From Candidatus Methanoplasma porotermitis (lineage in GTDB: Archaea > Thermoplasmatota > Thermoplasmata > Methanomassiliicoccales > Methanomethylophilaceae), in the NCBI GenBank assembly GCA_031290095.1, contig JAITOF010000045.1, positions 5,538-69,537 of the forward strand: a stretch of DNA of 64,000 nt, written 5' to 3'. Shown here one piece after another: positions 55,383 to 63,973 of this stretch. Every line of letters begins with the position of its first letter. Within the stretch, counting starts at the first letter, position 1. The position numbers and the translations under genes are program-made. Under the pieces are notes generated by a model. It searched no databases and had not been told where the DNA came from. It worked only from the letters and a program-made list of their open reading frames with translations.

Positions 55383-56306
55383 TCAGGCGTCCTGCGTCGC
55401 TCCGTTGCGGCCCTTATGGTTGAACAATGCGTTCTTTAGGCTGGCTTTAGCCGCGCTGTTGCCCGAAAGCACTCTTTTTGCGGAATCGGGAATGCCGTAA
55501 CGTATTATGTTGTCCGTCACCCCCACCTCGGCGCCCATCTCCTCTCTGACATGCTCATAATGGCGTACCGCCTCACCCATCACATCCCTCATTGACGACG
55601 TGATGCTGTAGATGTTGTGCGAAATGTATTCTGCCTTGTTTTGAAAGTCCGTGCAGTTCTGAAGGTACGGGTTGAACGTGCCGTTCATGTAGTCCTCGTC
55701 GAGATCGTCCACAGCGTCCATCACGTACACCATGGCGGCGAGCTCCCTCAGCAGGCCCGAGAGATGTTCTGAGCAACGGCCTCCTGCCAAAGACGCCAGT
55801 GGCCCGGCGACGGCTTCACCGAACGTCCTTCCCATCCGCACCGGGTCGGAGCATCCTTCCTCTTCCATCAAGCGCAAGGCCGTGAATCCGTCGCCGACGG
55901 CTCTGTCATACTCGGGATGTGTTTTTTCTGCCTTCGTTATCGCACGGTTGAGAGCCATGGATGCAAGATTGCTTTTCATAGTGCGATGATCGGTGCGATC
56001 GTCCATGAGCTCCCATTTCGTCAGTATCACCGTGTACGCGGCCATGCGCCTCATGATGTTGGAACTGCTGCTCGGCCTTCTCATAACGCACAGCGGAGAA
56101 CTCCGCGTTGTTCGGATGTCCGATCCCGCGCCAGACACCGAGTTCAGCATGATGGCGTTGAACGTCATGTCGTAATTGACCGTCGCGGCGGAAAGGAGGC
56201 CGAACCCTGACTTGAGCTGGTGGCACCCTTCACAGTAATATCTACGGTAAATCGAAAGGTTCGAGGCCGACAGCCGACTGTACAAGGGCACCACATAACC
56301 GAACAT
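55383..56306 (-). CDS. DUF5685-like protein (N-terminal Cys motif plus helical domain with Asp-rich motif)
   Basis: Start taken at MFGYVVPLYSRLSASNLSIYRRYYCEGCHQL, which matches my recollection of the MFGY...YC.xC N-terminus of DUF5685. The Asp-rich motif is MDAVDDLDEDYMNGTFNPY. It is divergent from the Cys-rich ORF and radical SAM pair. The family assignment is from memory, not a search. Confidence 0.5.
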   Translation of the reverse strand: MFGYVVPLYSRLSASNLSIYRRYYCEGCHQLKSGFGLLSAATVNYDMTFNAIMLNSVSGAGSDIRTTRSSPLCVMRRPSSSSNIMRRMAAYTVILTKWELMDDRTDHRTMKSNLASMALNRAITKAEKTHPEYDRAVGDGFTALRLMEEEGCSDPVRMGRTFGEAVAGPLASLAGGRCSEHLSGLLRELAAMVYVMDAVDDLDEDYMNGTFNPYLQNCTDFQNKAEYISHNIYSITSSMRDVMGEAVRHYEHVREEMGAEVGVTDNIIRYGIPDSAKRVLSGNSAAKASLKNALFNHKGRNGATQDA

Positions 56307-56333
56307 GTCGTCGCCGTATTGACTATCAGAATC

Positions 56334-56342
56334 TTTAATATA
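56334..56342. promoter_or_regulatory. TATA-like element in the divergent intergenic region
   Basis: tttaatata lies about 55 nt upstream of the ATG at 56396 and about 30 nt upstream of the minus-strand ATG at 56306. It could serve either or both divergent units. Pattern only. Confidence 0.3.
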
Positions 56343-56395
56343 TCCGTAGGGTTTACTCGGAAACGTACCCGCTGGCATGGCGGACAGGTGAATTG

Positions 56396-56698
56396 ATGAC
56401 GCAGGATGCAGTTACCGTTGAACATTTGACCGCGCTCTATATGAATCAGTCTCCAGCGGCCTTCGTGTCTGTTGCAATGTCTGCGCACTCGGACGGGCCG
56501 CAGGACCACTCCAAACGCCGGGACGAAGAAACTCACGGCGGCGACTCTGGATGCGACTACCCCTGTTGTAACGAGAAGGGGTGCTGTTCCTCCGGAGGAT
56601 GGTATCTGTGCCTATGCGGATGCATCGTGGTGCTTGTGGCGTTCTGTTGCTACATCACCAACGGCTTCAACGGCGTCTGGACATATTGGCCGTTCTGA
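56396..56698 (+). CDS. 100-aa Cys-rich small protein / candidate RiPP precursor
   Basis: AGGTGA lies 4 nt upstream of the ATG, and the stop is 1 nt before the radical SAM ATG. The C-terminal 48 aa are CDYPCCNEKGCCSSGGWYLCLCGCIVVLVAFCCYITNGFNGVWTYWPF (10 Cys, verified codon by codon). Confidence 0.5.
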   Translation: MTQDAVTVEHLTALYMNQSPAAFVSVAMSAHSDGPQDHSKRRDEETHGGDSGCDYPCCNEKGCCSSGGWYLCLCGCIVVLVAFCCYITNGFNGVWTYWPF

Positions 56699-56699
56699 G

Positions 56700-57839
56700 A
56701 TGAAACCGTTCATCTCGGTCATTATCAAACCAACTCTGGCCTGCAACATAGGCTGCAGGCATTGTTACCACCCTCCCGAGGAAAGGACGGGCGGGTCTAT
56801 AAGCCTCGAGACCCTGGACAGGTTGTTCCGCCTTCTTTCTGAGGAATACGAGTCTACATGGTTCATATGGCACGGGGGAGAGCCGCTGATGCTCTCTCCG
56901 CAGTTCTACCGCGATGCCATCGCCATGCAGGAGAGGTATTTTGGCAAGGGGTCTCACCGCGTAGGCAATACGATACAGACCAACGGCATACGCCTGAACA
57001 AGAGATTCATGGACTTGTGCCGTGAGAAGAAGATCAACGTGGGCGTCTCCTATGAAGGCCCTCGAAACGACGTCCTGAGGGAGCGGACGTCTGAAGTAGA
57101 AAATAATCTGGACATGCTGATAAAAAGGGAGCATGTGTTCTCAGTGGGCCTGACAGTGTCGTCGGACACGGCATCGGAGCAGGCCTCGCTCTACGAGCAC
57201 TTCCGAGACCGCCACATAGCCGTCTCGTTCTCTCCCGTGATTCCCGCAGGGTGCGCCGCGTCATGTCCCGGGCTCGTTCCGGACGTAGACGAATATGTCA
57301 GAGGGAGCATTGACGCCTTCGACCTATGGCTCACGGACACGGACACGGAAATACCGTTGATGCCTCACTACCTGTATCTTTTGAACGCTCTGGGCGAGCC
57401 TTCCGAGTCTGACTGCGCCCACAGCTCGTGTCTCACCAAATGGCTGTGCGTCTATCCTGACGGGAGCCTGTACCCCTGTGCAAAAGGCTGTATTCCCGAA
57501 TTCAGGATGTGCGGCCTGGAAGATGTAGAACACATATCGGACACGTTCCTCACCGACGGCTTCAGGAGGATGCTCGCAGGCACGATAGCAAGGAGGGAGA
57601 AATGCAGGTCGTGCGACATATTCGACCACTGCGGCGGAGGATGCAGCATGGACGCATGTTATGAGGAAGGGCTGGAGAACAACGGCAACCCTTCATGCAG
57701 AATCTACAAAGAGCTGTTCACTCAAATAAAAGACAGGGCAGACCGCATCGTCAGCGAGAAAAGGAACCTTTCCGAGTACAACAAATTCGTCCGGGACGCC
57801 GTGACCGGAAGGCTCATAGACCCGACGATGCCGCTGTGA
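56700..57839 (+). CDS. radical SAM enzyme with C-terminal SPASM domain (anSME/peptide-maturase-like)
   Basis: The N-terminus MKPFISVIIKPTLACNIGCRHCY carries the CxxxCxxC motif. GGEPLM is present. The SPASM motifs are CVYPDGSLYPC and CRSCDIFDHCGGGC (Cx2Cx5Cx3C), with a further Cys (PSCRIY). Confidence 0.85.
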   Translation: MKPFISVIIKPTLACNIGCRHCYHPPEERTGGSISLETLDRLFRLLSEEYESTWFIWHGGEPLMLSPQFYRDAIAMQERYFGKGSHRVGNTIQTNGIRLNKRFMDLCREKKINVGVSYEGPRNDVLRERTSEVENNLDMLIKREHVFSVGLTVSSDTASEQASLYEHFRDRHIAVSFSPVIPAGCAASCPGLVPDVDEYVRGSIDAFDLWLTDTDTEIPLMPHYLYLLNALGEPSESDCAHSSCLTKWLCVYPDGSLYPCAKGCIPEFRMCGLEDVEHISDTFLTDGFRRMLAGTIARREKCRSCDIFDHCGGGCSMDACYEEGLENNGNPSCRIYKELFTQIKDRADRIVSEKRNLSEYNKFVRDAVTGRLIDPTMPL

Positions 57840-62917: not shown

Positions 62918-63973
62918 ATGAACGTCATGCAACGGCAGATGGCAGAGGCGTCGAATCCGAACTACGAGTTCCAGCGAGTCATAGTCGCAGTCGGAGCCTC
63001 CCTGATGGTCATGAAGTTCATAGCGTACTTCGTGACGCATTCCATGGCGATACTGACTGACGCCCTCGAGAGCATCGTGAACGTGGTCGCCGGGGGGATC
63101 GGCCTTTATGCGCTCTATCTTTCAGCGAGGCCTGCCGACAGGTCCCACCCGTTCGGCCACGGAAAGGTGGAGGTTATCTCGGCATCGATCGAAGGGTCCA
63201 TGATCGCCGTTGCAGGGTTCATCATCCTGTTCGAGTCGTTCATGAGGATGCTCTCTCCCGAAGAGGTCCGGAACGTAGACATAGGGCTGTTGTTCGTGCT
63301 GTTCGCCGCCGTTGTGAACTACGTCTTGGGACGCGGCGCCATAGCGAGAGGACGAAAGACCCGTTCCATAGCCTTGGAATCCAGCGGGAAGCATCTGTGC
63401 GCCGACACATACTCCTCCGTCGGGATATCTATCGGGCTTCTTGCAGTCCTTGCAACCCAGAAGATGGGGTACGACTATCTGTGGCTGGACCCGCTCGTCG
63501 CCATGTTGTTCGGCACCGTGATAGTGATCACGGGGGGCAGGGTCATAAAGAAAGCCATGGACGACATCATGGACAGGGCGGACCGCGACGTTCTGGACCA
63601 GGTTGTGAGGTGCCTTAACGAACACCGCTCCCAGGATTGGATAGACATCCACAGCCTGCGCGTCATGAAGTTCGGCAGCAGGATGCATGTCGAGATGCAT
63701 ACCACTCTCCCGTTCGACATGACCGTGGAGCAGGAGGAGGCCCAGAAGAGCAAGCTGCACGAGGCGGTGGCGTCGCTGTATGGAGACAGCGTGGAACTGA
63801 TGATCATGCCGGAGCCGTGCAGGGAGTTCTCCTGCACGCACTGTTCTCGCGAATGCGTCAGCAGGCGCGCCAAGTTCGTCGGTCGCATGAACTGGACCAT
63901 CGACAGCCTCGCTCAGGACCACCAGCACGCCTTTAGGAACAGGGTCATAATCGACGTTGACAGCGATAAATGA
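62918..63973 (+). CDS. cation diffusion facilitator (CDF) metal efflux transporter with Cys/His-rich C-terminal tail
   Basis: HSMAILTDALESIVN, DRSHPFGHGKVE, six TM segments and a cytoplasmic domain. An extra tail reads EPCREFSCTHCSRECVS...DHQHAF. Confidence 0.85.
   Translation: MNVMQRQMAEASNPNYEFQRVIVAVGASLMVMKFIAYFVTHSMAILTDALESIVNVVAGGIGLYALYLSARPADRSHPFGHGKVEVISASIEGSMIAVAGFIILFESFMRMLSPEEVRNVDIGLLFVLFAAVVNYVLGRGAIARGRKTRSIALESSGKHLCADTYSSVGISIGLLAVLATQKMGYDYLWLDPLVAMLFGTVIVITGGRVIKKAMDDIMDRADRDVLDQVVRCLNEHRSQDWIDIHSLRVMKFGSRMHVEMHTTLPFDMTVEQEEAQKSKLHEAVASLYGDSVELMIMPEPCREFSCTHCSRECVSRRAKFVGRMNWTIDSLAQDHQHAFRNRVIIDVDSDK

Follow-up and report, generated by a model that had tools for sequence, protein, structure and literature searches.

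A conserved cysteine-string microprotein of methanogenic archaea, a candidate substrate of the adjoining radical SAM/SPASM enzyme and DUF5685 protein

Organization of the locus

We analyzed a stretch of 64,000 nucleotides from Candidatus Methanoplasma porotermitis (GenBank assembly GCA_031290095.1, contig JAITOF010000045.1, positions 5,538 to 69,537 of the forward strand), which at its full length is called the window here and to which all coordinates refer unless another locus is named. The subject is a small open reading frame (ORF) for a cysteine-rich protein that is located between a divergently oriented gene for a DUF5685 protein and, downstream, a gene for a radical S-adenosylmethionine (rSAM) enzyme with a SPASM domain. 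A previous reading of the window from its letters alone (the original prediction) had described the small ORF and the rSAM gene and had not noted DUF5685. We are highly confident that the small ORF is a real gene and that it is functionally coupled to both of its neighbours. The locus comprises the following features:

55383..56306, minus strand: DUF5685 protein, predicted to be all-alpha, with the motifs YYCEGCH, DDxxD and DAVDDLDxD (PF18937)
56334..56343, plus strand: TATA-box-like element, TTTAATATAT, located 62 nt upstream of the small ORF's ATG
56369..56383, plus strand: putative hairpin in the 5' untranslated region (5'UTR), CCGC, TGGCATG loop, GCGG, adjoining the Shine-Dalgarno site (covariation)
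56386..56391, plus strand: Shine-Dalgarno motif AGGTGA, 4 nt before the ATG
56396..56698, plus strand: small ORF, cysteine-string microprotein and candidate substrate of both flanking enzymes (translation, 32 homologues, synteny, ratio of nonsynonymous to synonymous substitutions, dN/dS)
56396..56488, plus strand: hydrophilic N-terminal region, residues 1-31, candidate recognition (leader-like) element (alignments; helices 4-16 and 20-31 predicted by AlphaFold2, AF2, with low confidence)
56489..56551, plus strand: acidic and glycine-rich linker, residues 32-52, of varying length among species (indels, low conservation, predicted local distance difference test, pLDDT, below 50)
56552..56587, plus strand: soluble cysteine motif C53-x-Y-x-C57-C58-x-x-x-G62-x-C64 (alignment)
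56600..56656, plus strand: hydrophobic cysteine-rich segment, residues 69-87, ending in C-C-Y, a predicted transmembrane helix or lipidated cysteine string (Kyte-Doolittle hydropathy, AF2 helix 67-90)
56657..56695, plus strand: C-terminal tail T88-x-G90-F91-x-G93-x-W95-x-(Y/F/W)97-W98-P99-(F/N)100 (column counts, 80 species)
56700..57839, plus strand: rSAM/SPASM enzyme of 379 amino acids, CX3CX2C motif formed by C15, C19 and C22 (PF04055, TIGR04085)

Retranslation of the small ORF, which is present in a single copy in the window, yielded 100 amino acids plus a stop (ATG at 56396, TGA at 56696-56698), in agreement with the letters quoted in the original prediction. Its description of the protein was correct as well: all 11 cysteines are within residues 53-85, where they form the groups CC 57-58, CC 63-64, CLCGC 72-76 and CC 84-85, residues 1-52 are free of cysteine, and the C-terminus is hydrophobic and aromatic. 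The Shine-Dalgarno motif is likewise found where it had been placed. The ATG of the rSAM gene at 56700 follows the stop codon of the small ORF with a gap of 1 nt. Upstream of this ATG the rSAM frame stays open as far as 56472, yet every homologue begins at MKP, which corresponds to 56700, and the 5' extension is therefore non-coding, as had also been supposed.

The small ORF is a conserved gene

A search of a database of 5.8 billion proteins retrieved 32 homologues of the small protein with lengths of 77-107 amino acids, plus one fragment of 55 amino acids. All homologues with names belong to the Methanomassiliicoccales (Methanoplasma, Methanomethylophilaceae, Methanoprimaticola). Scanning species-representative genomes with an alignment of the rSAM enzyme resulted in 116 matches, from which 80 loci were kept, all of the Methanomassiliicoccales type and with rSAM identities of 52-80%. 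In 79 of these 80 species loci, a hidden Markov model of the small protein detected the small ORF directly upstream of the rSAM gene, and the sole miss (L038) is a contig whose sequence starts with the rSAM gene, so that it offers no DNA upstream. Thus, relatives that carry the same rSAM gene also carry a homologous ORF, the lack of which had been named in the original prediction as the observation that would speak against it. In three loci with called genes as well as in the window, 1-32 nt separate the two genes. The DUF5685 gene adjoins the small ORF divergently in 70 of the 80 loci; of the 10 loci that miss it, 9 extend less than 1.5 kb upstream. The dN/dS ratio of the small ORF is about 0.1 (Nei-Gojobori method, comparison with three relatives). 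Altogether, purifying selection acts on the small ORF, which is inherited together with both enzymes. The gaps are short and the adjacency is kept, and were the genes not functionally linked, the apparent operon-type coupling in 79 of 80 species would be difficult to account for. A protein of a Candidatus Methanoplasma metagenome-assembled genome (MAG) matches the rSAM enzyme of the window with 100% identity.

A profile search for more distant relatives in 1.84 billion representative proteins yielded only about six clusters of true small proteins; the remaining matches were long, cysteine-rich repeat proteins. Within the databases searched, the family does not extend beyond one archaeal clade, the Methanomassiliicoccales. 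Some contigs with the archaeal gene trio are filed under bacterial names, that is, Lachnospiraceae, Bifidobacteriaceae, Bacteroides ovatus, Ruminococcus and Firmicutes CAG:194 (L029, L031, L034, L035, L078, L079, L081), which probably reflects bin contamination or mislabelling in the gut MAG set.

The region upstream of the small ORF is also conserved. A TATA-like element precedes the assumed ATG in 54 of 78 loci, mostly at -58 to -64, and wrongly set start codons explain several of the misses. In the window, the TATA-like element is followed by the short hairpin, the 3' arm of which abuts the GGTGA of the Shine-Dalgarno motif. In an alignment of 46 loci, the GGTG is invariant. The hairpin has a helix of 4-5 bp across the loci, and its loop is often GCCAG. 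For a 5-bp helix, 80% of the cells of the 46-locus alignment were paired, compared with 68.5% in shuffles, and double changes were found in 32 cells compared with 11.5 in shuffles; slid controls had 15-42% paired cells. The element has no match in Rfam and may be a translational control element. From the conserved TATA box, hairpin and Shine-Dalgarno motif we argue that transcription starts upstream of 56396. The longest ORF of DUF5685 (331 amino acids) would start with an ATG at 56378. This start is doubtful because the orthologues begin at MFGY, corresponding to 56306 (307 amino acids), and because the extra 24 codons (56306-56378, minus strand) would overlap the promoter and the 5'UTR of the small ORF. 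The MFGYV at 56306 is probably the true start, the upstream ATG being an over-extension.

Sequence features of the small protein

Conservation was counted over 80 distinct small-protein sequences. The N-terminal region contains the motif LTALYxxQSPxAF with near-invariant residues Y15, Q18 and P20, and the linker that follows ends in a fairly conserved H-G, a conserved histidine preceding the first cysteine. The AF2 model of the protein has a low pLDDT of 58.6 and was used for secondary structure only.

Residues C53, C57, C58, G62 and C64 of the soluble motif are invariant or near-invariant. The conserved cysteines of the whole protein are C53, C57, C58, C64, C84 and C85, and C63 is often replaced by tyrosine. 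Hence the core of cysteine pairs that had been predicted is present, and its conservation is limited to these positions. Within the hydrophobic segment the cysteines shift position among members, with the exception of the terminal C-C-Y (C-17, C-16, Y-15), which is invariant; the number of cysteines per protein varies from 8 to 14. The mean Kyte-Doolittle value of 19-mers is 2.4 over residues 69-88 of the window protein, the best 19-mer starting at residue 69-70, and ranges from 1.6 to 2.7 in all 80 members (median 2.05). In 78 of the 80 members, 12-15 residues separate the segment from the C-terminus, and in the other two 9 and 11. The N-terminus of the window protein is acidic and hydrophilic, and its sequence shows no hydrophobic signal there. 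The protein thus has the layout expected of tail-anchored proteins, a single hydrophobic segment within about 30 residues of the C-terminus and no N-terminal signal, and all 80 members have the segment, with 9-15 residues after it.

The counts for the tail columns over 80 species are T 80, G 80, F 79, G 79, W 76 (Y in 4), W 80 and P 80. Judged by these alignments, the best-conserved part of the protein is the aromatic tail and not the cysteine pairs.

A divergent sub-clade (L023, L024, L026, L032, L061, L062, L064, L076, L080, L085) has the N-terminal motif MANKLYxRQLPDVL, which lacks the serine, and a C-terminal asparagine in place of phenylalanine (ending in WTYWPN). Some of its members have an apparent N-terminal extension of about 35 residues that is rich in lysine, alanine and glutamate. 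Ser19 of the QSP motif was considered as a target of an enzyme like the anaerobic sulfatase-maturating enzymes (anSMEs) and was ruled out because it is replaced by leucine in this sub-clade.

Searches of the small ORF against NCBIfam, including the SCIFF precursor model TIGR03973, returned no families at E values up to 1, and SCIFF or any other precursor model was thereby ruled out as its family. A search against Pfam with the same limit gave no match to CYSTM (PF12734); the only hit was a sub-threshold match to DUF6458 at 56408-56527 (residues 5-44; E 0.00098, 19.8 bits compared with a cut-off of 27), which probably arose by chance.

The radical SAM/SPASM enzyme

The enzyme encoded downstream matched PF04055 (Radical_SAM) with 52.2 bits (cut-off 29.5) and the SPASM model TIGR04085 with 33.6 bits (cut-off 27). 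The cysteines C15, C19 and C22 are invariant, as are C239, C244, C250, C260, C302, C305, C311, C315 and C333 in the SPASM region. Over 13 diverse members the mean column identity is 71%.

The enzyme scored above the cut-off for no specific maturase family tested. The best family scores, all of them sub-threshold, were obtained for anSME (TIGR03942, 137.2 bits, cut-off 349.45), DynA (NF041298, 133 bits, cut-off 450) and TIGR04083 (119 bits). Among the enzymes that form aromatic cross-links, DynA (133 bits) was followed by DarW (90), GrrM (84), YhhB (78), FxsB (76) and DarE (NF038005; 74, cut-off 650), and the scores for enzymes that form thioethers were 71 bits for PapB, 46.9 for the SCIFF maturase (cut-off 425) and 45 for QhpD. 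The closest solved structure is that of anSMEcpe (PDB 4k36), whose catalytic Asp277, next to the auxiliary-cluster I ligand Cys276 (YPC276-D277), aligns with Ala261 (YPC260-A261) here; A261 is near-invariant in the family. By inspection, the 100 residues of the small protein do not contain the substrate motif C/S-x-P/A-x-R. An anSME identity was ruled out by the score under the cut-off, the replacement of Asp277 by Ala261 and the absence of a sulfatase motif from the small protein. A search of the literature for Methanomassiliicoccales together with radical SAM enzymes or peptides synthesized on the ribosome and modified post-translationally (RiPPs), and for TIGR04083, found nothing relevant.

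The DUF5685 protein

The protein encoded divergently matched DUF5685 (PF18937) with 157.2 bits, compared with a gathering cut-off of 26.7. Archaeal members have two invariant acidic motifs, WELxDDxxD (98-106) and DAVDDLDxD (197-205), which are located at the ends of long helices, and also contain YYCEGCH. Across bacterial and archaeal members only CxxC, DxxxD and DAxxDxxxD..N are invariant. An AF2 model based on 29 orthologues (pLDDT 85) is all-alpha. When this model was compared with the PDB by Foldseek, 46 of the top 50 matches were class I isoprenoid or terpene synthases, including MoeN5, polyprenyl diphosphate synthases, terpene cyclases and squalene synthase, and 2 more were UbiA prenyltransferases, all with weak scores. 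Class I terpenoid synthases have two metal-binding acidic motifs, of which the DUF5685 motifs are reminiscent in their order and in being about 100 residues apart. The model and the motifs are thus suggestive of an isoprenoid-synthase-like fold. A Pfam scan of DUF5685 gave no match to polyprenyl or terpene synthases, and phmmer, used to find a polyprenyl synthase in the window as a comparator, detected none. The literature searched contained one passing mention of DUF5685 and no functional study.

Cysteine strings next to DUF5685 in bacteria

DUF5685 is also found in bacteria. At the bacterial loci there is no rSAM gene, no homologue of the small ORF, and no LTALY..QSP region or aromatic tail beside the gene. 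In two Oscillospiraceae replicons, the gene next to DUF5685 encodes a protein of about 205 amino acids with a J-domain and TPR repeats that ends in a cysteine string, for example ...CSCCDMCTAMMCMDMCCGCGRGGC or ...LCLPLCCLYSLCPGGYCFFC. A metagenome scan with bacterial DUF5685 gave 80 loci. In about 28 of the 32 distinct bacterial loci whose downstream ORF is complete, this ORF encodes a J-domain protein with 7-11 cysteines in its last 40 residues, and it often overlaps DUF5685 by a few bases; the DUF5685 proteins are as little as 31% identical to the query of the scan. Two DUF5685 proteins encoded on plasmids contain cysteine-rich parts themselves, an internal insert of about 50 residues (QCCCHQCCNNCKCPCEDCHC...) in Chondrinema (L089 5001-6257) and a C-terminal tail (...CDGGCDPVPDDCCDGSECCD) in Nocardia (L088 5001-6008). 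By gene order and predicted protein sequence, four independent arrangements tie DUF5685 to cysteine strings: through a neighbouring gene in archaea, through another in Clostridia, and twice through fusion. What the archaeal microprotein and the bacterial partners share is the cysteine string, and the N-terminal motif and the aromatic tail are found only where the rSAM enzyme occurs.

In Clostridia, Oscillospiraceae and others (L087 5001-6508; L090 2465-4070; L091-L170), the protein encoded after DUF5685 has about 200 residues with a J-domain, a TPR-like region and a cysteine string such as CNCCSNLICADCCCECMGGDLISCC. It resembles a bacterial counterpart of the eukaryotic cysteine-string protein and appears to be undescribed: a literature search for bacterial J-domain cysteine-string proteins found nothing relevant. 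The association of DUF5685 with cysteine strings also appears to be undescribed in the literature searched.

In a Pusillibacter-like lineage only, a gene of the RseC family, with an N-terminal cysteine motif and two transmembrane helices, lies directly upstream of DUF5685 (e.g., L087 4586-4996). RseC as a general partner of DUF5685 was ruled out, as it is upstream in 17 of 76 bacterial loci, all from one lineage.

Other genes at the archaeal loci

No protease, ABC exporter or immunity gene was found in the neighbourhoods marked up with Pfam or as a recurring gene in a cruder census over the 80 loci. Clustering of the ORFs of the 80 loci, which is noisy owing to spurious GC-rich ORFs, did not reveal a conserved fourth gene of the module either. 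The recurring neighbours other than the trio are syntenic and comprise housekeeping genes (a metA-like gene in 63 loci, MFS and GNAT genes) as well as cation-diffusion-facilitator (CDF) and Zn-ribbon protein genes, the CDF gene recurring in 16 of the 80 loci. In the window, the CDF gene is located 5 kb downstream (62918-63973, plus strand) and encodes a protein with a C-terminus rich in cysteine and histidine (CREFSCTHCSRECVSRR); in L006 it follows directly after the rSAM gene (1922-2956). Its proximity may reflect either synteny or a link to metals.

A possible function of the gene trio

Of the explanations considered, the most likely is that the small ORF encodes a cell-retained, tail-anchored cysteine-string microprotein that is modified by both flanking enzymes, and not a secreted peptide of the antibiotic type; we regard the chances of this proposal as evenly balanced. 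From the sequences we infer that the protein is a substrate of the rSAM enzyme and of DUF5685, which sites could be modified by which chemistry, and that it could reside at the membrane. With the hydrophobic segment 12-13 residues from the C-terminus, the chain would be released into the cytoplasm before membrane insertion. Since at most 15 residues follow the segment, the whole chain would leave the ribosome before it contacts the membrane, so that cytoplasmic enzymes could reach all of it. The rSAM enzyme would recognize the N-terminal helices and install one or more intramolecular cross-links. The probable site is the aromatic tail G-F-x-G-x-W-x-Y-W-P-F, because it is invariant, co-occurs with the rSAM gene and the enzyme is closer to aromatic cross-linkers; the alternative site is C-x-Y-x-CC-x3-G-x-C. 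DUF5685 would act on the cysteine string, a role suggested by its recurrent cysteine-string partners, and the most likely chemistry, to judge from the hint at its fold and its acidic motifs of the metal-binding type, is that thiols receive a prenyl group (or another lipid). The product would remain within or at the membrane as a lasting part of the cell. In yeast, the CYSTM tail modules are S-palmitoylated membrane anchors and not membrane spans (PMC10840359).

Of the two possibilities offered in the original prediction, a tail-anchored and possibly lipidated cysteine-rich protein modified by the rSAM enzyme gained from the hydrophobic segment in all 80 members and from the link of DUF5685 to cysteine strings. 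It fits the evidence better than the leader-plus-core RiPP. In addition, the module is present throughout a methanogen family, as would be expected of a housekeeping function more than of a bacteriocin.

Several observations weigh against the proposed modification by both enzymes. For DUF5685, the best Foldseek E value was 0.014, with TM-scores of 0.4-0.5; searches of the PDB sequences with two profiles (A3 and A5) gave no match; hhalign with E. coli IspA gave a probability of 0.1%; and in the first acidic motif, invariance across domains is limited to D(i) and D(i+4). At one locus (L065), DUF5685 is absent although 3.6 kb of DNA lie upstream. The bacterial cysteine strings contain charged residues and are not similar to transmembrane segments, and their likeness to the archaeal hydrophobic segment is imperfect, with no demonstrated sequence homology between them. 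For the rSAM enzyme, the best match is anSME, which acts on cysteine or serine, and the ranking of similarities may reflect a shared short architecture (no RRE domain) and not the chemistry. Finally, the conserved N-terminal motif followed by a variable linker also looks like a cleavable leader.

A wider version of the proposal is that prokaryotes possess a cysteine-string lipidation system of their own, in which DUF5685 is a hitherto unrecognized protein S-prenyl (or other lipid) transferase with a terpenoid-synthase fold that anchors the clostridial J-domain co-chaperone, a bacterial counterpart of the cysteine-string protein, as well as the archaeal microprotein. The latter would in addition be cross-linked in its aromatic tail by the rSAM enzyme and would form a permanent, clade-universal membrane component that is possibly redox-active. 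We consider this version rather doubtful.

Alternative explanations

In the first alternative, the small ORF would encode the precursor of a classical RiPP, from which residues 1-52 are cleaved as a leader and the cysteine-rich core is cross-linked by the rSAM enzyme and released as a bioactive peptide. The cross-links could be thioethers as in SCIFF peptides, ranthipeptides or sactipeptides, or cyclophanes of the darobactin or dynobactin type. The gene order found in 79 of 80 loci, a small ORF directly upstream of a SPASM rSAM gene, is in line with this, and so are the N-terminal motif ahead of a variable linker, the relationship of the enzyme to DynA, TIGR04083 and other peptide maturases, and the restriction of the family to one clade. 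However, neither SCIFF nor any other precursor model matches, and the enzyme is far below the cut-offs of all maturases (46.9 bits instead of 425 for the SCIFF maturase). The census of 80 loci revealed no conserved protease, exporter or immunity gene, and the gene has a single copy, is present nearly universally and is strongly conserved in 116 species, in contrast to the patchy distribution of bacteriocin clusters. The 20-residue hydrophobic segment would make the product poorly soluble, and the core is more conserved than the leader. A RiPP is thus unlikely. What is left of the leader-plus-core proposal in the original prediction is the N-terminal motif, which could be leader-like.

Somewhat less probable again is a second alternative, in which the small protein is an unmodified, or metal- or Fe-S-loaded, cysteine-rich membrane microprotein for metal buffering or thiol redox chemistry and the two enzymes are merely syntenic and have other substrates. 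For CYSTM modules, which are small tail proteins with 5-6 conserved cysteines, a chelation or redox role was proposed (PMC2804304). The 8-14 cysteines and the conserved histidine before the first of them would suit such a role, and CDF genes are located within a few kb in some loci, in L006 even directly after the rSAM gene; however, a CDF neighbour is present in only 16 of the 80 loci. The coupling to the rSAM gene in 79 of 80 species is tight, no other substrate of the anSME-like enzyme (Asp277 replaced by alanine) is obvious, and the invariant aromatic tail would be left unexplained.

The host methanogens are cytochrome-free, and their membrane energy metabolism is incompletely understood. 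The least probable alternative, a cofactor precursor with the logic of pyrroloquinoline quinone (PQQ) or mycofactocin, in which the C-terminal W-x-Y-W-P-F (and perhaps CCY) is cross-linked, possibly prenylated by DUF5685, and excised as a membrane-soluble redox molecule, would account for a C-terminus as invariant as in precursors of the PqqA and MftA type, the adjacent SPASM rSAM gene, the family-wide, housekeeping-like distribution and an isoprenoid-synthase-like DUF5685 that could supply a lipid tail, but there are no conserved peptidase or further tailoring genes nearby, the bacterial partners of DUF5685 are cysteine strings on J-domain proteins and not aromatic tails, so that its role seems tied to cysteine, and the conservation of the N-terminus, the cysteine motif and the hydrophobic segment would be needless for a small excised cofactor.

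Comparison with known systems

If the proposed modification of the microprotein by both enzymes is correct, it would provide the first functional context for DUF5685, which is spread over Clostridia, Actinomycetota, Bacteroidota and archaea. It would add prokaryotic analogues of the eukaryotic cysteine-string and CYSTM proteins together with a candidate modifying enzyme that is unrelated to DHHC acyltransferases, which prokaryotes are not known to have. An rSAM enzyme of the RiPP type would mature a housekeeping membrane microprotein and not a secreted natural product. The gene trio is present in at least 116 species-level genomes of a methanogen lineage from human and animal guts (Methanomethylophilaceae/Methanoplasma), and could be used as a lineage marker or target.

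Regarding gene order, the closest systems are those of dynobactin (DynA) and the methanogen peptide maturases of TIGR04083 and, at a greater distance, those of darobactin (DarE) and the triceptides or 3-residue cyclophanes (XyeB, GrrM, FxsB, YhhB), which received the best scores of the enzyme among peptide maturases and also have a small ORF immediately upstream of a short SPASM rSAM gene without RRE. They also resemble the system described here in the aromatic C-terminal segment with an Omega-x-x spacing (W-T-Y, W-P-F). In contrast to the dynobactin-type systems, here the rSAM enzyme is far below the cut-offs, the substrate has 100 amino acids and a hydrophobic cysteine segment, a protease and exporter are lacking, the distribution is archaeal and family-wide, and DUF5685 is a partner. 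The anSMEs (TIGR03942, 4k36) have the same length, no RRE, the CX3CX2C motif and a two-cluster SPASM domain, but differ in the score (137 compared with 349 bits), in the residue at Asp277 (here Ala261), and in that here no sulfatase is encoded and the small protein has no C/S-x-P/A-x-R. The SCIFF peptides (TIGR03973) with ScfB (TIGR03974), the ranthipeptides and the sactipeptides share the cysteine-rich small peptide beside a SPASM rSAM enzyme. The differences from SCIFF are the absence of a model match at E up to 1, the rSAM score (47 compared with 425 bits), the twofold length of the small protein, its hydrophobic segment and aromatic tail, and the archaeal origin.

DnaJC5, the eukaryotic cysteine-string protein, consists of a J-domain and a cysteine string and has the same domain logic as the bacterial neighbours of DUF5685. 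ComQ, an enzyme with the class I isoprenoid synthase fold, prenylates the ribosomal peptide ComX on a tryptophan. This system provides a precedent for a ribosomal peptide as a prenyl acceptor, and the small ORF has invariant tryptophans near its C-terminus; however, DUF5685 has no sequence similarity to polyprenyl synthases, and the feature that its partners share across domains is the cysteine string and not tryptophan. The eukaryotic CYSTM/CYSPD proteins (PF12734) are likewise small proteins with a C-terminal, cysteine-rich hydrophobic segment, which is predicted as a tail anchor and in yeast is S-acylated and thereby bound to the membrane (PMC2804304, PMC10840359). No sequence homology to them was detected, and the archaeal protein differs by its dedicated rSAM enzyme, DUF5685 and the invariant aromatic tail.

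Taken together, the sequence comparisons indicate that the system behaves as an rSAM/SPASM peptide-maturation system and fails each specific test, for SCIFF, anSME, DynA/DarE and CYSTM alike. It is set apart from the usual RiPP cluster by a hydrophobic cysteine-string substrate with an aromatic tail, by the absence of processing and export genes, by its occurrence in 116 species-level genomes and by an obligatory DUF5685.

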